Shown: piece after piece, positions 7,993 through 61,686 of the stretch
Layout of the letters: every line of letters starts with the position of its first letter
Numbering within the stretch: position 1 is the first letter of the stretch
DNA from: an uncultured Acidobacteriota bacterium
Lineage (GTDB): Bacteria; Acidobacteriota; Thermoanaerobaculia; UBA5066; Gp7-AA6
Assembly: GCA_963837495.1 (NCBI GenBank)
Contig: CAWINF010000003.1
Location: 398,784-462,783, forward strand
Direction of reading: 5' to 3'
Length of the DNA: 64,000 bases
Position numbers and translations under genes: made by a program
The notes under the pieces: generated by a model
Told to the model about the DNA's origin: nothing
Seen by the model: the letters and a program-made list of their open reading frames with translations, nothing else
Database searches by the model: none

Positions 7993-8885
7993 GCACGCTC
8001 CCCATCCGCGCCCCGGAATGGATCCGCGAAAAGCGCCTGCGCCTGGCCGACCTCCACGAGGTCAAGCGCGTGATGCGCGCCGGCTATCTCCACACGGTCT
8101 GCGAGGAGGCGCGATGCCCCAACCGTGGAGAGTGTTTCGTCCGCGGGACCGCGACGTTCCTCCTGCTCGGCGACATCTGCACGAGGGCCTGCGGCTTCTG
8201 CGACATCGCCACGGGACGGCCCCGCCCCGTGGACCCGCTGGAGCCGGCCAGGGTGGCGGCGGCGGCGAGCCGGATGAGCCTGAAGTTCGTCGTCGTGACG
8301 TCGGTGGACCGCGACGACCTGCCTGACGGAGGCGCCGCCCACTTCGCCGGGACGATCCGGGCGCTGCGCGACCTCTCGCCGGTTCCCGGAATCGAGGTGC
8401 TCACGCCCGATTTCCGCGGCCGGCTCGATTCCGTGCGGACCGTCGTCGAAGCGGGGCCCGACGTCTTCAACCACAACGTCGAGACCGTTCCGCGTCTCTA
8501 TTCCCGGGCGCGCCGCGGCTCGAAGCTCGAACGCTCGCTCGCGGTCCTCGCCGAAGCGAAAAGGCTCGACCCGCGGATGACGACGAAGTCGGGCTTGATG
8601 GTGGGTCTGGGAGAGACGGAGCAGGAAGTGCTCGATCTGCTCGGCGGCCTCCGAGCGTCCCAGGTGGAGATCGTCACGATCGGCCAGTACCTGCGCCCCT
8701 CGCGCCAGAACCTGCCCGTCGAGGAGTACGTCGCCCCGGAGATGTTCGACCGCTACCGCGAAGCGGGGGAGAGGATGGGCTTCCGCCATGTCTTCTCCGG
8801 TCCCTTCGTGCGCTCCTCCTATCGCGCCGAAGAAGCCCTCGCCGCCGCCTCTTCTCCCTCTCCCTCCGGGAGAGGGTCGGGGTGA
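7968..8885 (+). CDS. lipA: Lipoyl synthase.
   Basis: Radical-SAM and auxiliary cluster motifs CEEARCPNRGEC and CTRACGFC; aligns with E. coli LipA (RAPEWI..LHTVCEE). Confidence 0.9.
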   Translation: MDRSAGRIGTLPIRAPEWIREKRLRLADLHEVKRVMRAGYLHTVCEEARCPNRGECFVRGTATFLLLGDICTRACGFCDIATGRPRPVDPLEPARVAAAASRMSLKFVVVTSVDRDDLPDGGAAHFAGTIRALRDLSPVPGIEVLTPDFRGRLDSVRTVVEAGPDVFNHNVETVPRLYSRARRGSKLERSLAVLAEAKRLDPRMTTKSGLMVGLGETEQEVLDLLGGLRASQVEIVTIGQYLRPSRQNLPVEEYVAPEMFDRYREAGERMGFRHVFSGPFVRSSYRAEEALAAASSPSPSGRGSG

Positions 8886-13149: not shown

Positions 13150-13616
13150 CTCGGCTCATGGAAGCCAGCCGTGTCCGGACACGGCTCGTGGAGAGATCTC
13201 GATCGACAGAGGAGAGTTGGTGGCCCCAACGAGACTCGAACCCGTGCCGCGGCCTCCGGGGGGCTCGGGGGGCACCACGTGCCCCCCGCTCATGGAGCCA
13301 GCCGTGTCCGGACACGGCTCGTGAAGAGATCTCGATCGACAGAGGAGAACTGGTGGCCCCAACGGGACTCGAACCCGTGCCGCGGCCTCCGGGGGGCTCG
13401 GGGGGCATCACGTGCCCCCCGCTCATGGAGCCAGCCGTGTCCGGACACGGCTCGTGGAGAGATCTCGATCGACAGAGGAGAACTGGTGGCCCCAACGGGA
13501 CTCGAACCCGTGCCGCGGCCTCCGGGGGGCTCGGGGGGCACCACGTGCCCCCCGCTCATGGAGCCAGCCGTGTTCGGACACGGCTCGTGGAGAGATCTCG
13601 ATCGACAGAGGAGAAC
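13150..13616 (-). repeat. Tandem array of tRNA-Glu-derived units, period 133 bp. Three perfect units start (plus-strand coordinates) at 13218, 13351 and 13484; a partial unit covers 13150-13217.
   Basis: On the minus strand each unit ends with the exact tRNA-Glu T-arm and acceptor 3' strand plus CCA (ggccgcggcacgggttcgagtcccgttggggccacca). This is preceded by two perfect GC hairpins (GGGGGGCAC..GUGCCCCCC and AGCCGUGUCC/GGACACGGCU) and a palindromic GATCGAGATCTC segment. Confidence 0.85.
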
Positions 13617-30807: not shown

Positions 30808-32190
30808 TCAGAGCGTCCGGGAGAAGACCGGCTTCTCCGGGGCCGCGGCGAGATAGGCGTCGAACGGCATCGCGAGGTTGCGCAGGAAGACGCGCCCCAC
30901 CGTCGTCGCCCGGATCTCGTCCTTCCCGAGGACGACCAGGCCGTCGGCGGCCGCAGGTCCGAGTTTCTCCAGAGCGCCGGCGAAATACTCGTCGAACCGG
31001 ATCCCGTACGCCGCCTCGATCTCGGACTTGACGATCACGCCGTGGCAGAGGAGGTTCTGGATCACGGTCCGGCGCAGCAGGTCGTCTTCCGAAAGCCGGA
31101 ACCCTCGGAACGTGGCCGCGCCGTGAGCCGCGACGTCCCGCTGGTACGGGCCGAGGTCCCGGCGGCTCTGGACGTAGGTGCGCCCGATCCCGCCGATCGC
31201 GCTCATCCCGAAGCCGATCAGGTCCGTCCCGGCCTTCGTCGTGTAGCCCTGGAAGTTCCGGTGGAGGGTCCTGTCCGTCCGCGCCCGCGCAAGCTCGTCG
31301 GTGGGCCGGGCGAAGTGATCCATGCCGATGTACTCGAAGCCGGCCCGCGTGAAGCGCTCGAGCGCCGTGCGGAAGATCTCGAACTTCGTGCGCTCGTCGG
31401 GCAGATGCGGCTGCAGCACGCTCTGGTGCTTCTTCATCCAGGGGACGTTGGCGTAGGAATAGACGGCCAGGCGGTCCGGGCCGATCACGAGGACCTTGTC
31501 GATCGTCTCGGAGAAGCTCTCGGCCGTCTGAAATGGCAGTCCGAAGATCAAGTCCATGTTGACGCTGGGGAAGCCGAGGGCGCGGGCCTGTTCGATGAGC
31601 CGGCGGGTGTCGTCGTACGGCTGAACGCGGTTGACCGCGACCTGGACCCGAGGCTCGAAATCCTGCACGCCCATGGAGAGCCGGTTGAACCCGAGTCTGG
31701 CGAGCGTCAGGAGGTGTTCCCGCGTCGTGACGCGCGGATCCACCTCGACGCCCATCTCGACGTCGGGCGCGAAACGGAAACGGTCCCGGAACTTTCGCCC
31801 CAGCCGCCGGAGGCGCTCCGGCGTGAAGTAGGTCGGAGTCCCCCCGCCCAGATGAAACTGGGTGACCGGCCGGTCCGCTCCGACCCGGTCGGCGACCCAG
31901 TCGATCTCCTTCTCGAGGACGTCGAGGTACGACTCCTCGAGCGCGTGCTGCGTGCCCGTGATGACGACGGTGCAGCCGCAGAAGTAGCAGAGCTTTTCGC
32001 AGAAGGGCAGGTGCACGTAGAGCGAGAGCGGCGCGGGTCTCTGCGCGGCCGAGCTATCTTCCAGCACCCGTGAGTAGTCGGAGGGAGTGAAGTCCTCCGT
32101 CCACACCGGCGCCGTCGGGTACGACGTGTACCGCGGCCCCGGCACGTTGTACCGATGGAGCAACTCCAGAGAGACTTCGCTGACGTTCAA
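30808..32190 (-). CDS. hemN: Oxygen-independent coproporphyrinogen III oxidase (radical SAM).
   Basis: LYVHLPFCEKLCYFCGC and the N-terminal HRYNVPGPRYTSYPTA motif. Putative TTG start overlaps the hemE stop (TTGA). The listed ORF is over-extended. Confidence 0.8.
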   Translation of the reverse strand: MNVSEVSLELLHRYNVPGPRYTSYPTAPVWTEDFTPSDYSRVLEDSSAAQRPAPLSLYVHLPFCEKLCYFCGCTVVITGTQHALEESYLDVLEKEIDWVADRVGADRPVTQFHLGGGTPTYFTPERLRRLGRKFRDRFRFAPDVEMGVEVDPRVTTREHLLTLARLGFNRLSMGVQDFEPRVQVAVNRVQPYDDTRRLIEQARALGFPSVNMDLIFGLPFQTAESFSETIDKVLVIGPDRLAVYSYANVPWMKKHQSVLQPHLPDERTKFEIFRTALERFTRAGFEYIGMDHFARPTDELARARTDRTLHRNFQGYTTKAGTDLIGFGMSAIGGIGRTYVQSRRDLGPYQRDVAAHGAATFRGFRLSEDDLLRRTVIQNLLCHGVIVKSEIEAAYGIRFDEYFAGALEKLGPAAADGLVVLGKDEIRATTVGRVFLRNLAMPFDAYLAAAPEKPVFSRTL

Positions 32191-33308
32191 GCCCGCGTCT
32201 CCGCTGGCGCCGCGGCCGGCAGGACCCCGGGCTCCCGCGCCGCGTCGAAGAACGCCTGCGCGCACTCGACCGGCGTCTGCGGCAGGACGCCGTGCCCCAG
32301 GTTGACGATGTGGGCGCGGCCGCCCGTGTCGGCCACGATGTCCCGCGTTCGCTTCGCGACATCCTCCTCGGGGCCGAGCAGGGCGCCCGGGTCGAGGTTC
32401 CCCTGGAGAGAAAGACCCGGCACCCGGCGCCGCGCCTCGGAGAGGGGCACGCGCCAATCGACGGACAGGACGTCCGCCCCCGACTCGCCCATCGCCTCGA
32501 GCAGGTGGGCGCAACCGTTGACGAAGAGGATGACCGGCGGATCTTCTTCCTTCACACGAGGACCCTTTTCCTCCGGCGCTGCGGGGCGCAGACGCGGAGC
32601 ACGCCGGATTCCTCCGATCGCGCGGGCGGTCGCCGGCAAGGCCCACTCGCGATAGTCCCTGGCCGTCAGCTCACCCGCCCATGTGTCGAAGATCTGGACG
32701 GCCCGCGCTCCCGACTCGATCTGAAAGGAGAGCACCTCTCCGACGACGTCGGCAAGGAGGTTGAGCAGGCGTCGAAGAGCTCTGGGGTCCCGTCCCATCA
32801 TCTGCTTGATCGCGGCGAAGGACTTCGAGCCCCCTCCTTCGACGAGATAGGAAGCCAGGGTCCACGGCGCTCCGGCGAAACCGAGCACCGCCGCTTTCTC
32901 CCCGACCTCTCGCGAAAGTGTCGACAGGATCTGACCGGTGAAGGCGATCTCTGCGGAAGGATCGAAGCTGTGCAGGCGGTTGACGTCCTCCAGGGTCCGC
33001 ACCGGCTCGGGGAGGTCCGGCCCTCCGTCCCCGAACTCGACGCGCGCTCCCATGGCCGCCACCGGGACGAGGATGTCCGAGAAGAAGATGACGCCGTCAG
33101 GCTGGAATCGCCGGAAGGGCTGAAGGGACACCTCCGCGGCCAGCTCGGGAGTACGGCAGAGTTCCAGAAACGAGACCTTGCGGCGCACCTCCCTGTACTC
33201 CGGGAGGTAACGCCCCGCCTGCCGCATCATCCACACAGGCGGACGATCCACCGGCCGCCCGAAGGAGGCGTCCAGAAAACGCGCGGCGGAGGGGGAGGAG
33301 CGGGTCAT
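32187..33308 (-). CDS. hemE: Uroporphyrinogen decarboxylase.
   Basis: PVWMMRQAGRYLPEY N-terminal signature, with a ~25-aa Pro/Glu-rich insertion. Confidence 0.9.
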   Translation of the reverse strand: MTRSSPSAARFLDASFGRPVDRPPVWMMRQAGRYLPEYREVRRKVSFLELCRTPELAAEVSLQPFRRFQPDGVIFFSDILVPVAAMGARVEFGDGGPDLPEPVRTLEDVNRLHSFDPSAEIAFTGQILSTLSREVGEKAAVLGFAGAPWTLASYLVEGGGSKSFAAIKQMMGRDPRALRRLLNLLADVVGEVLSFQIESGARAVQIFDTWAGELTARDYREWALPATARAIGGIRRAPRLRPAAPEEKGPRVKEEDPPVILFVNGCAHLLEAMGESGADVLSVDWRVPLSEARRRVPGLSLQGNLDPGALLGPEEDVAKRTRDIVADTGGRAHIVNLGHGVLPQTPVECAQAFFDAAREPGVLPAAAPAETRA

Positions 33309-45899: not shown

Positions 45900-47924
45900 C
45901 TAACCCGGAGTGCCTCGGAGGACCTCGAGGCTGCGCTCGAGGGCGTTCTCGGTGCCGAGCAGCAGGAGCTGGTCCTGGGGCTCGAACACGAAGTCGGCGC
46001 CGGGCGTGACGAGGGCGTTGCCGTTGCGCACGGCGGCGAGGAGTATCGTTCCGCCCGAGCCTCGAAGCTCCAGATCCCTCAGGGACCGCCCGACCGCCCG
46101 CCAATCCGGCCCGACAGACACGAACTCGATGCGAGTCCCCCCGAGAGCCTGCTCCAGACGCTCGGCGGCCACGTCGGGCGCGCGGAACTTCCGGAAGCTG
46201 TCCTCGCGTGTGCGGCGGATCTCGTCGGTCTCCGACTCGACCCAGGGAAGAGGAAAGCCCAGCCGACGCAGGGTCCGCCCGGAGATCTCGAGCGAGGTTT
46301 CGAATTCCTCGGCCACGACCTCGTCGGCGCCCAGTCCCGAGAGGCCCGGGATCTCGGCGAGGTAGCGCGTGCGAGCGAGGAGGAAGATGGCCGGCGACAG
46401 GCTGCGGCACAGCGAGAGCGTGTGGCGGGTCGCGCGCGGGTCCGACAGAAGCACGATCGCGGCCCGCGCTCTCTCGATGCCGGCGTGCCTCAGGACGGAC
46501 GCGCTCGTCGTGTCGCCGTACTCGATCGGCGCCCCTTTGGCCCGGCCGGCCCGGACCCGCTCCGGGCTCAGATCGAGCACGCGAAACGGGACCTTCGCCC
46601 GCGCCAGCACGCGGGAAAGAGTCTCGCCCATGTGGCCGAATCCGAAGACGAGGACATGATCTTCGCCCGGGAGCCTTGGCCCGGCCAGAGCGTCCGCGAC
46701 CAATTCGCGGGGACGGCCGATCGGGAACCCGGCTATCCGGTCGCCCACCGCGTGGCCGAGCAGGAACAGAAACGGAGTCGCGGTCATCGAGATGATCGTC
46801 GCCGCCAGCACGACCTGGTAGACCTCCGCCGAGACCAGGTTGGCCGCCCGCCCTTGCGCCAGGATCACGAAGGCGAATTCTCCGATCTGGGCCAGGGAAA
46901 TACCCACGATCGCCGCGACTCGAGGGCCGTAACCCAGCACGAGCACCGGGATCGCGGCCACGACCGCCTTGCCGACGAGAACGAGCGCGAGAGCGGCCGC
47001 GACGGTCGCGGGCCGAGTCGTCAGGATCCGCGCGTCGAACAGCATGCCGACCGACACGAAGAACAGAGCGTTGAAAGCGTCACGGAAGGGAGCGATGTCC
47101 GCCATGGCCTGGTGCCCGAAGTCGGAATCGGAAACGACCAGTCCCGCCAGGAAGGCGCCGATGGCGAGCGAGAGCCCCGCCCGCGCGGTCGCGAGCGCGG
47201 TGCCGAGCACGAGCAGGAGCACGGCCAGGAGGAACAGCTCCTTGCGCCGCGTCGCGGCGACCGCGTGGAGAAGGGGTGGGACCACGAATCGCGCCGCGAA
47301 GAACACGAGGACGACCGCGGCGGCCGCCTTGCCGATGGCGACGCCCGTTTCCAGAAGCGGGATGCCGTGGCGGGCCGCGAGCGGTCCGATGAGCAGCAGG
47401 ATCGGAACCACCATCAGGTCTTCGAAGACGTTGATCCCGACGAGAAACCTCCCGTGCGGCGAGTCAAGCTCGCGGCGCTCGACGAGGAGCTGGAGGATGA
47501 TGACCGTGGAACAGGTGACCACGAGGAACCCGAAGAAGAGGCTCTGGTTCCAGCTGTAGCCGCGCAGGAGCGGAACTGCTGCCGCGAGAAGAGTCACGCC
47601 GCAAAACTGGATGGGCCCGGCGATCCAGACGGCCGAGCCCAGGCGGCGCAGACTCGAGAGGGGAAGCTCGAGGCCGACCGTGAAGAGGAGCAGAACGACG
47701 CCGACCTGCGCCAGAGCCTCGACCGTTCCCACATCCTGCACGAACCCGAGCCCGTGGGGGCCCAGAAGGACGCCCGCCAGAAGGTAGCCGATCAAAGGCG
47801 GCAGGCGCAGCCGGTTCAGGACGTAGGCCGCCGCCAGGGCCGCCAGAAAGACCAGGGCGAGCGGAGCGAGAAAAGCCGGAACGGCCACTGCGGCCATTAT
47901 CGCGGACTCAGGTCCTGCGCTCAT
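45900..47924 (-). CDS. CPA2-family K+/H+ antiporter with TrkA-N/TrkA-C (RCK) domains (KefB/KefC-like).
   Basis: 13-TM Na_H exchanger core and a Rossmann RCK domain (VLVFGFGHMG). Confidence 0.85.
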   Translation of the reverse strand: MSAGPESAIMAAVAVPAFLAPLALVFLAALAAAYVLNRLRLPPLIGYLLAGVLLGPHGLGFVQDVGTVEALAQVGVVLLLFTVGLELPLSSLRRLGSAVWIAGPIQFCGVTLLAAAVPLLRGYSWNQSLFFGFLVVTCSTVIILQLLVERRELDSPHGRFLVGINVFEDLMVVPILLLIGPLAARHGIPLLETGVAIGKAAAAVVLVFFAARFVVPPLLHAVAATRRKELFLLAVLLLVLGTALATARAGLSLAIGAFLAGLVVSDSDFGHQAMADIAPFRDAFNALFFVSVGMLFDARILTTRPATVAAALALVLVGKAVVAAIPVLVLGYGPRVAAIVGISLAQIGEFAFVILAQGRAANLVSAEVYQVVLAATIISMTATPFLFLLGHAVGDRIAGFPIGRPRELVADALAGPRLPGEDHVLVFGFGHMGETLSRVLARAKVPFRVLDLSPERVRAGRAKGAPIEYGDTTSASVLRHAGIERARAAIVLLSDPRATRHTLSLCRSLSPAIFLLARTRYLAEIPGLSGLGADEVVAEEFETSLEISGRTLRRLGFPLPWVESETDEIRRTREDSFRKFRAPDVAAERLEQALGGTRIEFVSVGPDWRAVGRSLRDLELRGSGGTILLAAVRNGNALVTPGADFVFEPQDQLLLLGTENALERSLEVLRGTPG

Positions 47925-47964: not shown

Positions 47965-49512
47965 ATGCCGGGTATGACGACTCAGGCGCGGGCGAGCGAC
48001 AAGCAGTGGTTCGGACACCCGCGCGGCCTCTCCACGCTCTTTTTCACGGAGATGTGGGAGCGCTTCAGCTACTACGGGATGCGGGGCATTCTCCTGCTGT
48101 TCCTCGTCAACGCCGTCGCCACCGGCGGGTTCGGGATGAGCGACAAGACGGCCTCCGCGATCTATGGCCTCTACGTCGGACTGGTGTACCTGATGGCGCT
48201 TCCGGGCGGATGGATCGCCGACAGGATCCTGGGCCAGCGCCGGGCCGTTTTCCTCGGGGGGTGCATCATCGCCGCGGGGCATTTCAGCATGGCGCTGCCG
48301 ACGGTGCCCACCTTCTATCTGGGTCTCTGCCTGATCGTGATCGGGACGGGACTGCTCAAGCCCAACGTCAGCGCGATGGTCGGCGATCTCTATCCCGAGG
48401 GAGGAGCGCGGCGGGACGCCGGGTTCTCGATCTTCTACTCGGGCATCAACACGGGCGCGCTCTTCGGCCCCCTCGTGTGCGGTTTTCTCGGAGAGAGGAT
48501 CAACTGGCACCTGGGCTTCGGCGCCGCGGGAGTCGGGATGGTGTTCGGCCTCGTGCAGTATCGCTTCGGCGGAAAGTACCTGGGCGCCGCGGGGCTTCGG
48601 GCGGCCGAGTCCGGAGACCGGGTCGCTCTGCGCCGGATGTCCATCGCAATCGCGGCGGTCGCGCTCGTGATCGCCCTTCTCGCCGGGCTCATGGTCTTGG
48701 GCATTCTGAAGCTCACCCTCGTCCAGGTGGCCCAGAGCACGGGCTTCTTCATGGCGGTCCTCGCCGTGCTGTATTTCGCCTCCGTGCTTCTGTTCGGCAA
48801 GCTGTCAACTCCGGAGAAGAAGCGGGTCATCCTGATCTTCGTCTTCTTCCTCGCCGCGGTCCTTTTCTGGTCGGGCTACGAGCAGGCCGGGTCCTCCATG
48901 AACCTGTTCGCGGAGCGGCTGACCGACCGCATGATCGGCCATTGGGAGATGCCCGCTTCGTGGCTCCAGTCGGTCAATCCGGTTTTCATCATCGTCTTTG
49001 CGCCGGTGATCGGCGCCCTCTGGGTCTGGCTCAGGTCGCGCGAGCCTTCGACTCCCGCCAAGATGGGCTACGGCCTGGTGCTTCTCGCGGTCGGTTTTCT
49101 CGTGCTCGCCTGGGGCGCGACCTTCACCCGCGGCGGCTCCAAGGTGTCCCCGATGTGGCTGGTCGTAACTTACTTCCTGCACACCGTGGGGGAGCTGTGC
49201 TTGAGCCCCGTCGGTTTGAGCAGCGTCACGAAGCTCGCGCCGCGCCGCCTCGTCGGCCAGTTGATGGGGACCTGGTTCATGGGCACCGCGCTCGGCAATC
49301 TGATCGCCGGCCTTGCCGGCGGCGGGTTCGAAGGCATGTCGGTCGGACAGATGTTTGCCGCCGTCGCGAAGGTCACGGGCGCGGCCGGGCTGGTCCTCCT
49401 TCTCTTCTCGAGGCCGCTCAAGCGGTTGATGGGAGGCGAGCGCGGCGAGATCGTCGACGCCATGCCCGTGGGTTCCGAGGCGGCTACTCGCGAGGAGACG
49501 CAGACTCTCTAA
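47965..49512 (+). CDS. POT/PTR2-family di-/tripeptide:H+ symporter (DtpT-like).
   Basis: ExxERFxYYG motif (EMWERFSYYGMRG) and GGWIADR motif; 14 TM segments. Confidence 0.85.
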   Translation: MPGMTTQARASDKQWFGHPRGLSTLFFTEMWERFSYYGMRGILLLFLVNAVATGGFGMSDKTASAIYGLYVGLVYLMALPGGWIADRILGQRRAVFLGGCIIAAGHFSMALPTVPTFYLGLCLIVIGTGLLKPNVSAMVGDLYPEGGARRDAGFSIFYSGINTGALFGPLVCGFLGERINWHLGFGAAGVGMVFGLVQYRFGGKYLGAAGLRAAESGDRVALRRMSIAIAAVALVIALLAGLMVLGILKLTLVQVAQSTGFFMAVLAVLYFASVLLFGKLSTPEKKRVILIFVFFLAAVLFWSGYEQAGSSMNLFAERLTDRMIGHWEMPASWLQSVNPVFIIVFAPVIGALWVWLRSREPSTPAKMGYGLVLLAVGFLVLAWGATFTRGGSKVSPMWLVVTYFLHTVGELCLSPVGLSSVTKLAPRRLVGQLMGTWFMGTALGNLIAGLAGGGFEGMSVGQMFAAVAKVTGAAGLVLLLFSRPLKRLMGGERGEIVDAMPVGSEAATREETQTL

Positions 49513-49897
49513 TTCGGCACGGGATTTGCGGGTGAAATTCTTCGTGCAACAGGCAGAATTCGACCTTTCGAAACTCGTGGGAAGCAAATCTCTGTCACGT
49601 TCCCTCCTCTCGGTTTGGCTTTGATCGCTAGCCCGATTCCGAGCTGGAACCGCCTTATGTCTTTTGAAGGAAGCGGCTTAGCGGCGTGGAGAAGATACTT
49701 GAAGCGATCGCGGCCAAATTGTGCCAGAATCGGGCACAAGGGTTGCTACTGAAGCACACTGGAAGAGCAATGACACAGGAAAGAAACAACGGCGGGTACC
49801 TCCCAGGGGGAGGTTTGCCTTTTCCAGCGTTTAGAGATCGGGTGTGGAAGAGTGCGGCGGAGTTCTTGGGCAGCAAACCTTGAAGGAGATCCCGAGG

Positions 49898-50692
49898 ATG
49901 AGCAGTGCAGCCGGTCCCCCGCGAGTATCGCGATTCGGATGGAACCTCTCCGGCGTAAAAAGCCCTTCAGGGCGGGCGAAAGCCGACGCTCCCGCCGTGC
50001 TCCTGGCGACCGCCGATGCCGTTCTGCGAGGCCATTGGAAAGCTGTCCTCCAGGAGGGGTATCCCCTTCGGGATGTTTCCGACGGCGCCTGCCTCGACCG
50101 GACGGTCGCGACTCTGACGCCCGATGTCCTCCTGCTCGATCTCGACCTGTTCGGCGTCGGCGGAATTGGCGACGGTCCGATCGTGCAGAGCCTGGCACAG
50201 GGTGCGAAGCTGGTCCTGTTCTCTTCCTCTCCCAACGAGCGGGAAGGGATCCGCGTGCTGAAGGCCGGCGCCAGGGGATATTGCAACAAGAACATCGATC
50301 CGCAGCTTCTTCGAAGGATCGTGGACCGAGTCCATGAGGGAGAGATCTGGGCAGAGCGCAAGCTCATTCCCAAGCTCCTGGAAGAGTACGCCGCGTCGCA
50401 GGACGGTGAGCACCGCAAACAGAGGCGGAAATCCGACAGCCGGCTGACCCTTCTGACGCCGCGCGAGCGCGAGATCGCTTTTCTGATCGGCGCCGGCGCC
50501 AGCAACAAAGAGATCGCGAGCCGGCTTCGTGTCGGCGAAGGTACGGTCAAGGCTCACCTGACCTCGATTTTTCGGAAACTGGGCTTCTCCGACCGTCTCC
50601 AGCTCGGCCTTTTTCTGGTGAACCCGAACTGGGATCTCCAGTACTCGCAGAAGACCCTCTCCGCTCCCTCCGTCGAGCGTCTCAGCTCCTGA
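49898..50692 (+). CDS. LuxR/FixJ-family response regulator (receiver plus HTH_LuxR).
   Basis: RBS AAGGAG. Receiver-like domain (LLLDLDL, KLVLFSSSP) and C-terminal LTPREREIAFLIGAGASNKEIASRLRVGEGTVKAHL. Confidence 0.75.
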   Translation: MSSAAGPPRVSRFGWNLSGVKSPSGRAKADAPAVLLATADAVLRGHWKAVLQEGYPLRDVSDGACLDRTVATLTPDVLLLDLDLFGVGGIGDGPIVQSLAQGAKLVLFSSSPNEREGIRVLKAGARGYCNKNIDPQLLRRIVDRVHEGEIWAERKLIPKLLEEYAASQDGEHRKQRRKSDSRLTLLTPREREIAFLIGAGASNKEIASRLRVGEGTVKAHLTSIFRKLGFSDRLQLGLFLVNPNWDLQYSQKTLSAPSVERLSS

Positions 50693-51475: not shown

Positions 51476-52660
51476 ATGCACCGTATACTTACAGCCGCTT
51501 TCCTTCTTCTATGTTCTACCGGGTTACTCGCGCAGGCGACGACCGAGCAGGCGTCCCGGTCCACCTTTGAGATCCAGGGTTTGAAGGTCAAGACACAGAT
51601 TGATTTCGACGGGGTGGTCCATCGGGCCTTGTATCAGGAGATCGTCCCGTGCCGGTTGGTGGACACTCGCGCGGGCTCGAATTTCGACGCGCCCTACGGC
51701 GGACCGGCGTTTGTCAACGAGACCCGGATATATTCCGTTTCGGGGGTCGGCCCGACCAACCCTTGTGCCATCGGGAACCGCGGCGCGGCAGACCCCGACG
51801 CGCGAACGTTTTCGCAGCCATGGATCGCCCTCAGTGTGATGGTCAAGATCTACAACGCCGAGACGGGCCCGGTCTCCGGCGCCTTCAGGATGCTGGGAGC
51901 CTCGGCGACACCCACGTGGTTTGGCTGGACGGGTGCCGGCGTGCTGGCTGCCCAGCAAGACGCAGTTGTTCTGACCAACGACCAGATTTCAGTTGCTGTT
52001 AACGGCGCGAAGGCCGACGTGACCGTCGATTTGCTCGGCTACTTTGTGGATGACCCGGCCCTTGCCGGCCCGCAGGGGCCCCAGGGTGAGAAAGGGGACA
52101 TTGGAGCCACCGGGCTGCAAGGGCCTGCGGGTCTGGCGGGGCCGCAGGGTGTCAAGGGCGACACGGGCGCGACCGGAACGACCGGGCTGCAAGGGCCTGC
52201 GGGTCCGGCGGGGCCGCAGGGTGTCAAGGGCGACACGGGCGCGATCGGAGCGTCCGGGCCGCAGGGGCCCGAAGGCGCGGCGGGACCGCAGGGTGTGAAG
52301 GGTGATACGGGTGCGGCCGGCGCGCAAGGACCCCAGGGTCTGGCGGGGCCGCAGGGTGTCAAGGGCGACACAGGTGCGGCCGGACCGCAGGGGCCCGAAG
52401 GTCCTGCTGGTCCGCAAGGTGCGAAGGGTGATACCGGAGCAACAGGACCGATTGGGCCGCAGGGGCCGCAAGGTATTCAGGGTCCTCCGGGGCCGCAAGG
52501 CCCTCCCGGCCCCTCTCCGGTCGGGGCCTCTGACTGCACGATACTGGAGCAAATCAAGGGGTGTCTTAGCGACAATGGGGGCTTCGCCAATTTTCGTGAG
52601 TGTACCCTGGCGTTGATTTGTCCGGCACCAGAAGCTCGGATCGTGAAGACGAGAAGTTAA
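51476..52660 (+). CDS. Secreted collagen-like triple-helix repeat protein.
   Basis: RBS AAGGAGG and signal peptide. A ~190-aa N-domain is followed by ~47 uninterrupted GXY triplets ([11 protein letters not shown]...) and a Cys-rich 45-aa C-terminal domain. Confidence 0.8.
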
Positions 52661-52686
52661 AGGCCTCGAGGGAAGTGAAGGTGTGA

Positions 52687-52720
52687 GAGGCGGGGAGAGA
52701 TCCCCGCCTCTGCTTTATTC
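52687..52720 (+). terminator. Rho-independent terminator after the collagen-like gene.
   Basis: Hairpin GAGGCGGGGA-GAGA-UCCCCGCCUC followed by UGCUUUAUUC. Confidence 0.7.
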
Positions 52721-53046
52721 GTCAGCAGGACCAGGGCCGACAATGAGTCGTGCGGGAACCGCGCAGAGTTCAGAGACCGCGCGTTGCTTCTCGCGGGTCA
52801 TGACTCAACCGGGCTGAGGGCGTCCGATTTGCTCGATCGTGATTCCCACCCCGGCCAGAAACCAGAGCCAGTCGCCCAGTCCGCCGCCTCCCTCGGCGAA
52901 GAGCACGACGGACGTGACAACGCGAAACGGGGCGTGCGATGCTCTTCCGAAGGGGTCATCTCAGCAGGTTCTTCATGTCACGCTATCCCCTCGTTTAGCG
53001 TCGATCACCCGGCGGAACTGGCGCGCTCGATGCTTGCTGGAAGAGC

Positions 53047-53694
53047 ATGGCACAGCGCGCACCGATCGAAGGCACGGCTCTCCCGCTCATTCCCGAAAGG
53101 CCGACGCTTCACGGGCTGCGGGAGGCGGCCAGGGACTGCCGCGCCTGTCCGCTCTGGAAGCGAGGCATGCAGACTGTCTTCGGAGAGGGAAAGCGGGGCT
53201 CCCTGGTGGTCCTGGTCGGCGAGCAGCCGGGCGACCGCGAAGACATCGAAGGCCGGCCCTTCGTGGGTCCCGCGGGAAGACTCCTCGACGCCTGCCTGGA
53301 GGAGGCCGGCATCGACCGGTCGAAGGCCTACGTCACCAACGTGGTCAAGCATTTCAAGTGGGAGCCGCGCGGCAAGAAGCGGATCCACCAGAAACCCAAC
53401 GCGGTGGAGATCGGCGCCTGCCGCCCCTGGCTCGACGCGGAGCTTTCTCTCATCAAGCCGAAGGTCCTCGTCTGCCTGGGCGCCACAGCCGCTCAGGCTT
53501 TGCTCGGCTCCTCTTTCCGCGTGACGAAGAGCCGCGGCTCCTTCGTGAAGTCGGCTCTCGCGCCCTTCGTGACTGCCACGGTCCACCCCTCCTCGATTCT
53601 TCGGGCGCCGGACGACGCCGCCCGACGCCTGGCGAAAGAGGCCTTCGTCCAGGACCTTCGAAGAGTCGCAAGCAAGATCTTGGAAGCGCAATGA
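53047..53694 (+). CDS. Uracil-DNA glycosylase superfamily protein, UdgX-like.
   Basis: Motif A GEQPGDRED, R-loop KKRIH (compare UdgX KRRIH with its covalent-linking His) and motif B HPSSILR. Fe-S Cys positions are typical of family 4. Confidence 0.75.
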   Translation: MAQRAPIEGTALPLIPERPTLHGLREAARDCRACPLWKRGMQTVFGEGKRGSLVVLVGEQPGDREDIEGRPFVGPAGRLLDACLEEAGIDRSKAYVTNVVKHFKWEPRGKKRIHQKPNAVEIGACRPWLDAELSLIKPKVLVCLGATAAQALLGSSFRVTKSRGSFVKSALAPFVTATVHPSSILRAPDDAARRLAKEAFVQDLRRVASKILEAQ

Positions 53695-53742
53695 AGGAAA
53701 TGGCGGACCACCGAAAGTGGAGAACGGGAAGCCCGGGAATTG

Positions 53743-53766
53743 GGGGGCTACTTGCGCAGCCCCCCC
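53743..53766. terminator. GC hairpin between convergent genes (udgX-like and the secreted hypothetical).
   Basis: Reads GGGGGGCU-ACUUGCGC-AGCCCCCC; only a weak T tract. Confidence 0.45.
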
Positions 53767-53790
53767 TCCGATTTGCGTGGATCGATTCCG

Positions 53791-55080
53791 CTACCTGTGG
53801 ATTTGGATATTGCCCCCGATCAAGGTATGCGGACCATTCGAGTAGGTTGTCGTCTGGATGCCGAAGGTGTCCATAGTCCCGGGCTCGCCGCAGTCGTCAA
53901 CGTCAACCGTGAAAGGCTCCGAGGTTGTGCCGGTCACCCGGATCACGTCGGCCATTCCCTGGAAGGTCGCATGCGTGTTCGGGCCGCAACTCCCATCGCT
54001 GATGAATAGTCCGCTCATGGAAGTCGCTCTTATGCGGACCCCTGCAGAATGGTCGTTGTACTCCAGGTTCCCTGTCGCCGCGCAGCACCGCACCACGAAG
54101 CCGAAGGTGGCCTGCGAGTTCGGATCAGCCGCACTGGCCGTCAGAGCCGGTGGCGAGAGGAGCTCCCCGAGGGAGGAGAAGACGGGATCGCCCGTGATCT
54201 GGCCCCCGCCCGTGACCCTTCCTGGAGTGGATTCCTGGCCGGTCCTGAAGCTGTTGTCGATGGCAAGGCCGTCAAACTCGTTCTGAACGAACCAGCCGTA
54301 GCGGTTACCGCCCACGGTCGTCCCGATGACGTCGGAGGGATCGCTTAGAACCCACGTGCCGAGCGGGGTGTTCGAGCCCGTCGGCGCAACCGTCAAGGTG
54401 ACGGTGAGGGGGCCCCCAGGCATCCCGCTGAAGGCGTGCTTGAAGGTGTACCAGCCCGACATCGAGATTTGGACCGGGGAATGGCCCGGGTCGGCCGGGT
54501 TCGCTCCGCAGCGTGTCGCGTTGTTGCCGCCTGTCATCACGAACCCGAGCGCGTCCGTTCCCACGTTGAACACGAAGTCGCGCCTGAAGTTCCCGGAGGT
54601 GTCGCTGATCGCCGAAGACCAGTCGAAACGGGTGTCCGGGTGAGCGATCGCGTAGGGCACATCGAGGTAGATGTCGACCCCGGTCGAGTATCCGCCCGGC
54701 GGGAAGGTCGCGCTGTAGCCTCCCCATTTTGTGTACGGTCCCTCGTGGATCGGTTGGGGTCCTCCGCCGGACATGCAGGTATCGGGACTGGGGTCTTTCC
54801 CCAGCCGGGCGTAGTAGTCGCCCGTGGCTGCCGCCACCCCATTCGCATAGGTGCTTGTTGACCCCGATGGGACTCGGGTGATCGTGGCCCCGCTGTTGTT
54901 GAACCACCCCGCGGTGTCCGTCTCGAAACCATTGAAATAAGGCCCTGGCGGCGCATCGGCGGCGGCCGTCGCGCCCACAGCGAACAGGATGGCGAAGACT
55001 GCGAAGAGCCGGGGGGCATAGCGCTTCGCTCTCGTTCTCCGGTTCGCATTGGGCGTGACAGCCGCTGCCCTGACCTCCAT
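53791..55080 (-). CDS. Secreted hypothetical protein (~430 aa), Gly/Thr/Ser-rich.
   Basis: Likely start ATG 55080 gives a signal peptide (RLFAVFAILFAVGATAAA). No recognisable catalytic motif. Alternative upstream start at 55143. Confidence 0.6.
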   Translation of the reverse strand: MEVRAAAVTPNANRRTRAKRYAPRLFAVFAILFAVGATAAADAPPGPYFNGFETDTAGWFNNSGATITRVPSGSTSTYANGVAAATGDYYARLGKDPSPDTCMSGGGPQPIHEGPYTKWGGYSATFPPGGYSTGVDIYLDVPYAIAHPDTRFDWSSAISDTSGNFRRDFVFNVGTDALGFVMTGGNNATRCGANPADPGHSPVQISMSGWYTFKHAFSGMPGGPLTVTLTVAPTGSNTPLGTWVLSDPSDVIGTTVGGNRYGWFVQNEFDGLAIDNSFRTGQESTPGRVTGGGQITGDPVFSSLGELLSPPALTASAADPNSQATFGFVVRCCAATGNLEYNDHSAGVRIRATSMSGLFISDGSCGPNTHATFQGMADVIRVTGTTSEPFTVDVDDCGEPGTMDTFGIQTTTYSNGPHTLIGGNIQIHR

Positions 55081-55277
55081 TCCGGATGCGCCGGCTATTT
55101 CGCGCCGAGCTCCGCGTTCGTGGAATTGCAGAAACCGTTTCATGAGAAACCTCCTTTCAAGCCGTCCCGAAGGTAGGGGCCGGCAGAGGGCGGAGGCAAT
55201 GAGGGGAATCCCTCATTTTAAGGACCCGCGATTCCTCAATCCTGACGAGGGCCGAGACTCTGGTGATCGAAGGAGTT

Positions 55278-55600: not shown

Positions 55601-57838
55601 TTACTTGTGAGCCTGATGATTCCCGAACGTTAGATTGGTGACAACAACATCCAAGACCACGTTGCCATCGGCATCTGTGATGGTGTATCTGGCAGTGTCG
55701 TTTGTACCCGGCTCTCCCGCATCGGTAAAGGTCCACGTCGCCGTGGCGCCAGGCACGCCATTGTACCTGCCGGTGCCGACACCTATGTAGGTATCAAAGG
55801 GCGCGGCAGGTGGCGGCGGCGCTATGGCCGGATCGTCGAAGCAAGCAGCCGACACCAGATCAGTCATGTGGAACCTGTTGCCCGCCCAGTTGATCTCAAG
55901 GCTGTTGGGGTGTTTGCTGGCATTACAATGCAGCTCAAATCCATGCGTCACTCTGACGCCGTCAGTAGTGAACACACTGCCTCCACCGGTCATCCGGCCG
56001 CTCGCCGGCGTTGGCGTATTGGTCGGCGTATTCGTCGGGGTATTCGTGGGAGTGTTGGTCGGAGTGTTGGTCGGCGTATTCGTCGGGGTGGGGGTGTTGG
56101 TCGGCGTGTTGGTCGGGGTGTTCGTCGGGGTGGGGGTGTTGGTCGGCGTGTTGGTCGGGGTGTTCGTCGGGGTGTTGGTCGGCGTGTTGGTCGGGGTGTT
56201 GGTCGGGGTGTTCGTCGGCGTGTTGGTCGGCGTGTTGGTCGGCGTGTTGGTCGGCGTATTCGTCGGGGTGTTGGTCGGCGTGTTCGTCGGCGTATTCGTC
56301 GGCGTATTCGTCGGCGTGTTGGTGTTGGTCGGGGTGTTCGTCGGAGTGTCGGTGGGGGTGTTGGTCGGCGTGTTCGTCGGGGTGTTGGTCGGCGTGTTGG
56401 TCGGAGTGTTCGTCGGCGTATTCGTCGGCGTGTTGGTGGGGGTTGGAGTGTTTGTCGGAGTATTTGTCGGCGTATTGGTCGGCGTATTGGTCGGCGTGGG
56501 CGTGCAGGCCAGAACCAGAACCGTGTTCGTGGTGCTGGCCGACACCGGAAGCGGGATACCCCCGCCATTCGTGTCCGTGCCGGTGGCCGCGACTTGATCG
56601 GTGAAGAGAGTGGTCCCGCCCGGATCGCAGGAAGGCGCCGTCTCGTCTATATTGCCACCGCAGGTATCCCCCGGCGTGCCAAGAGGCTGGAGAACAGTCA
56701 CAGGAGTGCCGGCGGGGAATTCGCAGGGGATGGGCACGGGACCGCCGCCAGGAAATGGAACCTCGTTCGTAATGGCAAGGTTGATGACCGTGTTGACCGG
56801 GTCCTGGTTCTGGACCGTGTAGGAGCAAGAGAACGAGGCGCCCGGCGGCTCGACGGAGGGACAGGTCTTGGTTATCCCCAGACCGGTCGTGACATTAACG
56901 GCGTCAATCCCGGCCTTGCCCTTGGTCAGCGTGGTGGTCGTCCGCGACGTGTGGGTGGCCTGACTCGACGACATGCCCGTGGGGCAAGGCGTCAGAGCGC
57001 CCGTGGCGCTGAAGGTCCCCGTGAAATTGGAGTTTCCCTCGCCGCCCGCGCCGCCGGTCAGGAAGGCTTCGAAGCTCGCCGGCTTGCCGGCGAAACCATC
57101 CTGCCCGTCCGCTCCCGTGTTGTTCGCCGCCCTGAGATTGGCGCCCTGGCTCTGCTCCTCGTCCACGGGCTTGACGGCGAGCGCGTTGTAGTCGTTGCCG
57201 AATGAGGTGTAGACCGCGGAGGCCCACTGCCACTTCGCGGTTACCCCGGGCGTGTCGGTGGAAAAGGCCGCCGACCAGGTAACCGAACCGATGCCCCCGG
57301 GCAGACCCCCGGCGGGAACCGGGAAAGCAAGCCCGGAGAGAAAAGCCCTCCCCGAGAGACCGCCGGGGACGATCGTGACCCAGCGATTGTTCGCGGCATC
57401 GAAGCCCGTCGAAGCGACCGTCGCCGCCGGGTCGATGACGACCGTGGCGGCCGGAACGGCCAGGCTGTAGCTCTTGCCGTTGGCGACGAACGAAATCGTC
57501 GAATCATTCAGGAAAATACTCGCCGGCTGGGCCGCGAGTCCATCGACTCGCAGAGCGCTGTTGAACCAGATGACGTTGCCCTCGGCGATCGAAGTCGCGT
57601 TGAAGCCCGATTCGATCGAACTCAACGCCGTGCACGATCTCTCCATCTGGGGGGTGGAGGGCACCGGGGTACCCCTCTGGGGAGAGCTGCCTCTCGCCAG
57701 AGACACCAGCGCGATACCCAGGCACAAGACTCCCAGGCCCGACCAGATGCGCCACCTTCTGCGCGCTCCGGCGGAACTTGCCCAGGCATCGAACCAGGAA
57801 AAACGCGACCCTACGCGACGGCGACGCCCTGAGTCCAT
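55601..57838 (-). CDS. Large secreted protein with an extensive (TPTN)n tetrapeptide-repeat linker.
   Basis: 745 aa with an Arg-rich N-terminus and TM/signal region. The central ~165 aa are TPTNTPTN... encoded by a 12-bp tandem repeat. Flanking domains are Gly/Thr-rich with Cys pairs. Confidence 0.7.
56008..56500. repeat. 12-bp tandem repeat (about 40 units of GTTGGTCGGCGT and variants) encoding (TPTN)n.
   Basis: Direct reading of gttggtcggcgtattggtcggcgtattcgtcgggg... throughout. Confidence 0.9.
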
Positions 57839-60263: not shown

Positions 60264-60340
60264 TGGTGGGCCGCGTGGGACTCGAACCCACGACCACCGG
60301 CTTAAAAGGCCGATGCTCTAACCAACTGAGCTAGCGGCCC
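60264..60340 (-). tRNA. tRNA-Lys(UUU).
   Basis: Minus strand GGGCCGCTAGCTCAGTTGGTTAGAGCATCGGCCTTTTAAGCCGGTGGTCGTGGGTTCGAGTCCCACGCGGCCCACCA; anticodon loop CTTTTAA, encoded CCA. Confidence 0.9.
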
Positions 60341-60375: not shown

Positions 60376-61686
60376 TCAGCCCGCGGAGGGGAGGGCGGCG
60401 AGGAATTTCGAGTCGGGGCGGCGAATGGTTTCTTCGCGGCGGGGGCCGGTGGCTATGAAGGCAGCGGAGGCGCCGACGGCGTCTTCGAGGAAGCGGACGT
60501 AGCGGCTGGCGGCGGGAGGAAGGTCTTCGTAGCGCGTCACCGCGGTGGTCTTCGATTTCCAACCGGGAAGGGTCTCGTACACGGGCTCCAGGCGGGCCAC
60601 GTCCTCGACGAGAGGAGGCAAAGTGTCCGTCGACCGGCCGTCGAGGCGGTAGCCGACGCAGACGGGGATCTCGTCGAGGTCGTCGAGCACGTCGAGCTTC
60701 GTGATCGCGATCGCTTCGGCGCCGGAGAGCGCGACGGAGGTTCGGGCGACGACGGCGTCGAACCAGCCGGTGCGGCGGGGACGCCCCGTCGAGGTGCCGT
60801 ACTCGTTGCCGCGCGCGCGGAGGAATTCTCCGGTCGCGTTCGAAAGCTCGGTCGGGAAGGGCCCCGCTCCCACTCGGGTCGTGTAGGCCTTCAAGACGAC
60901 GAGAGAAGCGTCCAGGGCGCGCGGCGAGATCTGCAGTCCCGCTGCGAGGCCGGCCGAGGTGCACGTCGAGGATGTAACGAACGGGTACGTGCCAGCGGAG
61001 ATGTCGAGCATGGCGCCGTGCGCGCCCTCGCCGAGCAGAGTCCCCCCGGAAGCGAGGTGATTTCGCAGGTATCGCCCCGTGTCGGTCACGTAGGGTGCGA
61101 TCCGGGCCGCGGACTTTGCGAGCGAGGCGGCGACCGATCCGGGCGCGGGGACGACGATCTCTCCCAGCGCTGAAAGGAGCGTCCCGGTCTCCGCGGCCAG
61201 AGCCTCGACGCGCCCGATGAGGATCTCGGGCCGGAAGAGATCCGCGACGCGGACGCCGTGGCGCGCGGCGACGGATTCGTAAGCCGGTCCGATTCCCCGC
61301 AACGTCGTACCGAGCTTCGCGTTCCCGGCCGCGCGTTCGCGGGCGCCATCCAGGAGCCGGTGGTAGGGGAGGATGACGTGCGCGCGGTCGGAGAGGAGAA
61401 GGTTGTCGTCGATCGAGATCCCCGCGGCGCGGAGCGCGTCGATCTCGGAGAGAAGCGCCTCCGGATCCACCACAACTCCCGGGCCGATGACCCCCTTGCG
61501 GCCCCGCACAATCCCGGACGGGAGAAGGTGCAGCGCGAAATGGCGGTCGTCGAATTTGACCGTGTGCCCCGCGTTGTGGCCCCCGTGGTATCGCGCGACG
61601 ATGTCGAAGCGGTCCGAGAGAAGGTCTACGACCTTCCCCTTGCCTTCGTCTCCCCATTGACCGCCCAGGACCGCCACGACTCTCAC
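60376..61686 (-). CDS. purA: Adenylosuccinate synthetase.
   Basis: GGQWGDEGKGK P-loop and GHNAGHT motifs; full length. Confidence 0.9.
   Translation of the reverse strand: MRVVAVLGGQWGDEGKGKVVDLLSDRFDIVARYHGGHNAGHTVKFDDRHFALHLLPSGIVRGRKGVIGPGVVVDPEALLSEIDALRAAGISIDDNLLLSDRAHVILPYHRLLDGARERAAGNAKLGTTLRGIGPAYESVAARHGVRVADLFRPEILIGRVEALAAETGTLLSALGEIVVPAPGSVAASLAKSAARIAPYVTDTGRYLRNHLASGGTLLGEGAHGAMLDISAGTYPFVTSSTCTSAGLAAGLQISPRALDASLVVLKAYTTRVGAGPFPTELSNATGEFLRARGNEYGTSTGRPRRTGWFDAVVARTSVALSGAEAIAITKLDVLDDLDEIPVCVGYRLDGRSTDTLPPLVEDVARLEPVYETLPGWKSKTTAVTRYEDLPPAASRYVRFLEDAVGASAAFIATGPRREETIRRPDSKFLAALPSAG

Follow-up and report, generated by a model that had tools for sequence, protein, structure and literature searches.

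The window, a 64-kb stretch of DNA that, judged from its relatives, probably comes from a Thermoanaerobaculia-like member of the Acidobacteriota, is ordinary chromosome of 66–70% GC. It carries genes for aconitase, a Ser/Thr kinase, hutH, hemB, hemC, hemH and hemN, a class-III aminotransferase gene that is probably hemL, and tRNAs. One tRNA call, an 82-nt tRNA-Gly(CCC) at 13484-13565 on the minus strand, was made by ARAGORN and falls below the Rfam tRNA gathering score; the adjacent tRNA-Glu was confirmed by both tools. The gene of interest, udgX, encodes a standalone UdgX-family uracil-DNA glycosylase (uracil-DNA crosslinking protein), which we describe by comparison with UdgX of M. smegmatis (MsmUdgX). 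It lies among the following features:

45900-47924, minus strand: Kef-type exchanger
47965-49512, plus strand: POT transporter
49844-50692, plus strand: NarL/LuxR-type response regulator
51476-52660, plus strand: collagen-repeat protein of 394 aa with a signal-peptide-like N-terminus and about 50 Gly-X-Y triplets (Pfam Collagen, E=4e-24)
52686-52711, plus strand: terminator-like hairpin at the 3' end of the collagen-like gene
53019-53037, plus strand: candidate sigma-54-type promoter TGGCGCGCTCGATGCTTGC, with GG at 53020-53021 and GC at 53032-53033 in -24/-12 spacing, 10 nt before the ATG
53047-53694, plus strand: udgX, with an ATG start, 215 aa plus stop
53137-53148, plus strand, within udgX: CRAC (C31-R-A-C34), putative first two [4Fe-4S] ligands, aligned to MsmUdgX C24/C27
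53218-53244, plus strand, within udgX: motif A, GEQPGDRED, placed by exact-coordinate translation and alignment
53338-53388, plus strand, within udgX: motif 3 and R-loop, from N98-V-V-K101-H102 through FKWEPRG to K110-K111-R112-I113-H114, placed by alignments and translation
53350-53352, plus strand, within udgX: H102, putative Fe-S ligand in place of a family-4 Cys, from alignment
53419-53421, plus strand, within udgX: C125, putative Fe-S ligand, from alignment
53584-53604, plus strand, within udgX: motif B, HPSSILR (H180-P-S-S-I-L-R186), placed by exact-coordinate translation and alignment
53791-55143, minus strand: secreted protein with a post-COAP-1 domain (NF041523, 63 bits)
55601-57838, minus strand: predicted secreted protein of 745 aa
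58176-59975, minus strand: GH5-like protein
60264-60340, minus strand: tRNA-Lys, on which ARAGORN and the Rfam tRNA model agree
60376-61686, minus strand: purA

The hairpin that follows the collagen-like gene indicates that udgX forms a transcription unit of its own. Its third-position GC (0.82) is on par with that of the confident genes of the window and, judged from its sequence, the open reading frame is a genuine and intact member of the UdgX family. The flanking genes have peculiarities of their own. In the 745-aa protein, PTNT is repeated in tandem about 45 times, encoded by a 12-nt tandem repeat at about 55967-56500, and the strand opposite this repeat has a spurious 257-aa (GVLV)n ORF. 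The two proteins encoded at 53791-55143 and 55601-57838 have similar-looking C-terminal regions and no homologs in the relatives, and the collagen-repeat gene finds only a weak match there, in one related locus (L015).

We assigned the protein to a family by domain models, sequence comparison and predicted structure. The UDG-superfamily domain PF03167 is the sole Pfam domain in its 215 residues (E=7.6e-34), and the NCBIfam model TIGR03914, "UdgX family uracil-DNA binding protein", matches with 276.2 bits against a cutoff of 189.95 (E=2.1e-82). A phmmer search of the PDB returned MsmUdgX and its mutants as the 24 best matches (E~2e-58), and Smith-Waterman alignment with MsmUdgX gave 52% identity over 197 positions. 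The E-values of the Pfam, NCBIfam and PDB matches put the similarity far beyond chance. An AlphaFold2 model built on 46 homologs reached a mean pLDDT of 87.7 and a pTM of 0.87; the 30 best Foldseek matches of this model in the PDB are all UdgX structures (TM 0.86–0.94, rmsd 1.7–2.3 A, 202–207 columns). Confidence dips only in residue blocks 101-120 (pLDDT 64–73), the R-loop region and least confident part of the model, as expected because this loop is flexible.

The motifs point the same way. The sequence-only reading had described GEQPGDRED, KKRIH and HPSSILR, and translation at exact coordinates recovered all three; the segment FKWEPRGKKRIH is encoded at 53353-53388 on the plus strand, with KKRIH at 53374-53388. 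That reading had also taken KKRIH as the counterpart of the MsmUdgX R-loop KRRIH, and both phmmer and Smith-Waterman place the two column for column, K110-K111-R112-I113-H114 on K105-R106-R107-I108-H109, so that H109 corresponds to H114 and R107 to R112. The family-4-type Fe-S scaffold and motifs A and B likewise align with MsmUdgX in both ligands and motif positions. Motif A has the glutamine that replaces the family-4 A/G (G58-E59-Q60-P61-G62, aligned to residues 51-55 of MsmUdgX). The acidic pair D56/D59 that anchors R107 recurs as D63 and D66, motif B conforms to HPS(S/A)(L/V/I)(L/V)R with its catalytic His and substrate-binding Arg, and a 3 Cys plus 1 His ligand set is present as C31, C34, H102 and C125, which would bind the cluster. 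The earlier proposal of a UdgX-type, probably covalently crosslinking glycosylase is thus strongly supported by the aligned R-loop, motifs and ligands and by the fit of the model, and the family assignment is as firm as sequence data and a structure prediction can make it.

Every residue found critical in mutagenesis or structures of MsmUdgX is identical at the aligned position of the window protein, as follows (MsmUdgX first, window protein second):

Fe-S ligands: C24, C27, H95, C120; C31, C34, H102, C125
Motif A: E52, Q53, D56, D59; E59, Q60, D63, D66
Uracil stacking: F65; F72
Uracil recognition: N91, K94; N98, K101
R-loop anchor and nucleophile: R107, H109; R112, H114
Motif B: H178, R184; H180, R186

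Among 46 homologs of the clade, C31, C34, E59, Q60, D66, F72, K101, H102, R112, H114, C125, H180 and R186 are invariant and N98 is nearly so; D63 falls just below 90% conservation and is N in some. The invariant and nearly invariant residues are therefore under selection. In MsmUdgX, H109 mutants gain turnover, R107S and deletion of the loop are dead, as is C27S, and a His takes the place of one Fe-S Cys (PMC4787834). E52 and H109 form a dyad, Q53 stabilises the R-loop and R184 binds substrate, and R107 with H109 constitutes the signature of the UdgX family (PMC10359453). Tripartite salt bridges among D56, D59 and R107, and the roles of N91-K94, F65 and H178, have been described as well (PMC10776899). 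UdgX is defined biochemically by a uracil-dependent, SDS- and heat-resistant covalent complex with DNA and by the gain of turnover in its His mutant (PMC4787834, PMC10359453); the proteins with biochemistry come from Mycobacterium, Rhodococcus and Bradyrhizobium (PMC10359453).

From this homology we infer the likely chemistry of the window protein. C31, C34, H102 and C125 would bind a [4Fe-4S] cluster that stabilises a family-4-like UDG fold. A uracil in single- or double-stranded DNA would be flipped into the pocket, where F72 would stack on it, N98, supported by K101, would read its edge, and the main chain of E59 together with H180 would contact O2; R186 would help to bind DNA or substrate. 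The extended R-loop would be pinned over the active site through salt bridges of R112 to D66/D63 and through Q60. During cleavage of the glycosidic bond, E59 would activate H114 for an attack on the deoxyribose C1', which would join the protein covalently to the abasic site. The predicted outcome is a single-turnover, SDS-resistant DNA-protein crosslink instead of a free AP site, and the adduct would then be left to other pathways, which for MsmUdgX in E. coli are RecA-dependent. The protein is thus very probably a standalone, chromosomally encoded UdgX, a single-turnover glycosylase that would crosslink to DNA through H114.

How unusual is such a gene? The sequence-only reading held UdgX homologs to be rare outside Actinobacteria, which our searches contradict; the family is widespread among soil bacteria. 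A word-indexed protein search (E<=1e-10) returned at least 8000 proteins, the 120th match still scoring 333 bits, and a scan of one genome per species found the gene in at least 563 genomes (563 of 600 stretches confirmed). When 1.84 billion cluster representatives were searched exhaustively with HMMER, 1188 clusters (at 50% identity) matched with E<=1e-30 and 15582 at 1e-10. The best 80 of the at least 563 loci are mostly from Acidobacteriota (Pyrinomonadaceae, Blastocatellia, Thermoanaerobaculia, Terriglobales and Vicinamibacterales); the others among these 80 come from Verrucomicrobiia, Sorangium, Anaeromyxobacteraceae, Chloroflexi, Gemmatimonadaceae, Rokubacteria, Dormibacterota, Binatia and Actinomycetota. 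Relatives at 73–79% identity already bear the NCBI name "UdgX family uracil-DNA binding protein". The 2015 discovery paper listed proteobacterial homologs (PMC4787834), and the scattered distribution of UdgX explicitly includes Alpha-, Beta- and Gammaproteobacteria (PMC4787834, PMC10776899).

Motif A does read GEQPGDRED, and the arginine in place of K57 is no peculiarity of this protein. Across 134 close homologs, GEQPGDRED occurs in 103 (of 125 sequences with a motif A), KKRIH in 76 and HPSSILR in 111, which makes this combination the consensus of the clade. The six-residue spacing of the loop is found in all 124 close homologs with a detectable loop; in the top 150 representatives from the exhaustive search, it accounts for 117 of 138 and the mycobacterial eight-residue spacing for 12. 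The gene is thus an uncharacterised new member of a known, automatically annotated family.

Upstream of udgX lies a candidate regulatory element. The 28 bases 5' of the ATG read TGGCGCGCTCGATGCTTGCTGGAAGAGC, and the first 19 of these (53019-53037) fit the sigma-54 consensus, TGGCACG-N4-TTGCW, with correct GG-to-GC spacing. At the same offset from the start codon, the element is invariant or nearly so in five related loci (L081, L083, L084, L085 and L001), and variants of it occur in L003, L015, L021 and L012; the remaining upstream DNA is unalignable. The pattern TGGC-N8-TGCT has five copies in the 64 kb against 1.06 expected, and comparison with gene coordinates places four of them inside genes, leaving the udgX upstream copy as the only intergenic one. 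Given the -24/-12 geometry, transcription is predicted to start 0–3 nt before the ATG, which would yield a leaderless or nearly leaderless mRNA. We regard the element, a consensus match backed by conservation, as a candidate promoter. The annotated neighbours of udgX include no sigma-54 activator gene, and a sigma-70 promoter scan of 52500-53900 found nothing. No LexA-type box (GTTC-N7-GTTC-like direct repeats and GAAC-N4-GTTC) was found in a 400-base segment spanning the udgX start, about 385 bases of which lie upstream, and CAAAC-N3-7-GTTTG is absent from the whole window.

What might such a protein be for? To look at its company elsewhere, we clustered the ORFs of the best 80 of the at least 563 related loci and scanned the clusters with HMMs. 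In about 30 of the 80, udgX adjoins a cassette of imuA-like, imuB-like and dnaE2 genes, and in about 24 it stands head to head with an imuA-imuB-dnaE2 operon that encodes a RecA-fold ImuA-like protein, a Y-family ImuB-like protein and DnaE2 (NF004225, 1203 bits against a cutoff of 939). A lexA gene (TIGR00498, 189 bits) follows directly downstream in 19 loci. The linked loci and nearby recA genes are:

L002, L004, L005, L009-L011, L014, L016, L018-L020, L024, L026-L031, L033, L034, L037, L071, L073: cassette-linked, with udgX at about 8001-8630 in most
L036, L038, L042, L053, L054, L055: cassette-linked as well
L036: convergent arrangement
L038, L053: co-directional, downstream
L042: dnaE2 abutting udgX
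L054, L055 (Sorangium): cassette partners about 6 kb from udgX
L012 (12218-13297), L013 (12237-13322), L074 (11427-12767): full-length recA 4–5 kb downstream of udgX in three Thermoanaerobaculia loci

The short divergent spacer between the imuA-like gene and udgX holds, in five loci, an operator-like palindrome, CAAAC-N4-5-GTTTG, often in two copies (L010 at 7908 and 7966, L014 at 7966, L018 at 7967, L024 at 2196 and 2261, L029 at 2910 and 3061). It was not found upstream of lexA in these loci, and we therefore did not assign it as a LexA box. In Terriglobia-type loci (L019, L026, L031, L037), the spacer has a direct repeat, (A/T)TTC-N7-(G/T)TTC, like the alphaproteobacterial LexA box and a candidate for one. 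In the literature library searched, no paper pairs UdgX with dnaE2, and none turned up that treats imuB and uracil-DNA glycosylase as gene neighbours.

These arrangements raise the possibility of a physiological role other than general repair. A crosslinking-competent UdgX could act as a stress or damage-tolerance factor that caps uracil or AP sites in single-stranded DNA for bypass of the ImuA-ImuB-DnaE2 type, much as SRAP/YedK/HMCES proteins do, with the gene rewired to a sigma-54 promoter in the window clade. The varying arrangement of the cassette from lineage to lineage speaks for such a role, as do the bona fide recA genes nearby in Thermoanaerobaculia, the RecA-dependence of MsmUdgX toxicity in E. 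coli (PMC4787834), a 2013 comparative-genomic study that connected DUF4130/radical-SAM/UDG genes to the SOS network (PMC3765255), and the conserved -24/-12 element upstream of the window gene. However, tblastn at 1e-3 found no match to imuA, imuB, dnaE2, lexA or recA anywhere in the 64-kb window, most of the linked loci belong to related Acidobacteriota, so the signal is partly inherited synteny, and the promoter element is a consensus match only. We consider this role possible, if on the whole unlikely. A fuller version, which we infer tentatively and hold to be rather improbable, would make UdgX a dedicated damage-tolerance factor and not a repair glycosylase. Where single-stranded DNA is exposed, it would replace uracils by abasic sites protected under a protein cap, ready for error-prone bypass, and so do alone what UDG and SRAP/HMCES do together. 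The gene would be wired into the lexA/imuA-imuB-dnaE2 locus in many Acidobacteriota; in the window clade it would have left that locus and come under a conserved sigma-54 promoter with a leaderless mRNA. If true, sigma-54 drive in the window clade would couple the capping of uracils to another stress signal.

The covalent UdgX chemistry itself has to be weighed against a conventional, multiple-turnover family-4 (UdgA-type) UDG that resembles UdgX in a few motifs only. The fold is common to both groups, and the protein also passes the broad family-4 model TIGR00758, the only family-4 hallmark it shows, at a far lower score than the UdgX model (147 bits against a cutoff of 125). However, true family-4 UDGs come only next in the PDB search, from 6e-30 (T. 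thermophilus) to 9e-27, some 28 orders of magnitude behind the UdgX structures, and rank lower in Foldseek too (TM 0.73–0.76). Family-4 enzymes have GE(A/G)PG, a P/N at the positions of R107 and H109, and no R-loop (PMC10359453), whereas the window protein has Q60, R112, H114 and the full loop; its fourth Fe-S position is His (H102) where family 4 has Cys, as in UdgX. A family-4 enzyme is, on these grounds, highly improbable.

The gene's position bears on a further alternative. The sequence-only reading had placed udgX in an accessory block, and its flanks are indeed variable and of lower GC (down to 0.60–0.66 at 48–58 kb); udgX itself, however, sits in a conserved syntenic place with no integrase, att repeat or defence gene. 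Relatives whose UdgX is 71–80% identical keep parts of a frame that runs Kef, POT, (regulator), udgX, purA:

L084: Kef, POT and regulator kept
L085: Kef, POT, regulator and purA kept
L021: Kef, POT and purA kept
L003: Kef and POT kept
L015: POT only kept

The genes directly beside udgX vary between genomes, and the collagen-like and secreted-protein genes are not common to the relatives. In L083 (3671-10358; UdgX 86% identical), udgX is followed by a short-chain dehydrogenase, an HTH/antitoxin pair, a phage-type integrase, an AAA_25 protein and many small ORFs, a layout which suggests that the udgX-adjacent region is an integration hot spot in that lineage. For the window, PADLOC gave no defence match for UdgX, PHROG found no phage genes (the matches of the collagen-like neighbour are repeat-driven low complexity), no integrase was present, and no direct repeat derived from tRNA-Lys was found. 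A mobile cargo gene, for instance a defence or toxin gene against uracil-containing phage DNA acquired with the low-GC block, would fit the GC drop, the nearby tRNA-Lys, the lineage-specific neighbours and the integrase-bearing element 2.4 kb downstream of udgX in L083, but it is already largely refuted by the synteny of L084, L085, L003, L021 and L015, and the core-gene-like third-position GC and lack of mobility or defence hallmarks leave it barely credible. Conserved synteny and the absence of any integrase, tRNA repeat, defence or phage gene instead argue that udgX is a stable gene, inherited vertically, in a part of the chromosome that otherwise varies.

As a standalone, probably crosslinking UdgX the window gene is a routine, textbook ortholog that existing annotation models already recognise, and as such it matters little. 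Of the features that had looked special, rarity proved wrong, the motif spelling is clade consensus and the location is only partly as described; the finding is therefore of low interest. The main leads are the adjacency of udgX to the mutasome genes in Acidobacteriota relatives and the conserved sigma-54-type element, which offer concrete, testable hypotheses on the role of UdgX. UdgX proteins serve as reagents for detecting and mapping uracil in DNA and for making covalent DNA-protein conjugates, and for these modest practical uses natural homologs found in other phyla could widen the choice.

Among known systems, the closest is MsmUdgX (MSMEG_0265; PDB 6AIL, 6AJO, 6IO9, 6IOD), likewise a standalone protein of about 210 aa with the same fold. 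The two have in common GEQPG, the D/D pair, the xxRIH loop with its crosslinking His, HPSSxLR and the ligand set of three Cys and one His. Compared with MsmUdgX, the window protein is two residues shorter in the stretch before KxRIH (KHF-N6 as opposed to N8), has a three-residue deletion before motif B and carries the substitutions K57 to R, R106 to K and L182 to I, and its phylum is Acidobacteriota-like rather than Actinomycetota. None of the differing positions is among the residues found critical.

Family-4 UDGs (UdgA; T. thermophilus 1UI0, T. maritima 1L9G) have the alpha/beta UDG fold, the Fe-S scaffold and the GExPG and HPxxxxR framework in common with the window protein, at about 32–37% identity. 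In contrast to UdgX they turn over and use four Cys, with A/G in motif A, P/N in place of R/H and no R-loop (PMC10359453), and at all of these sites the window sequence agrees with UdgX. DUF4130-UdgX-type fusions contain the same UdgX-type (TIGR03914) domain, with GEQPG and xxR(I/L)H; such fusions of 450–500 aa are among the best matches of the exhaustive search, at 51–65% identity. They are usually described with a radical SAM partner, and the window protein differs from them in lacking the N-terminal DUF4130 part of about 250 aa. No DUF4130 or radical SAM domain occurs in the neighbours of udgX; the only radical SAM gene of the window (30808-32646), considered as a partner, was rejected, as it is HemN (546 bits) and 20 kb away.

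With SRAP/YedK/HMCES the likeness is one of function only, in that both they and UdgX form suicide-type covalent adducts at abasic sites. Fold and chemistry are unrelated and there is no homology: in SRAP the N-terminal Cys forms a thiazolidine without any base excision, whereas UdgX uses a His and excises the uracil itself. Both SRAP genes (PMC3765255) and, in the related loci, udgX are nonetheless found beside ImuA-ImuB-DnaE2 cassettes.
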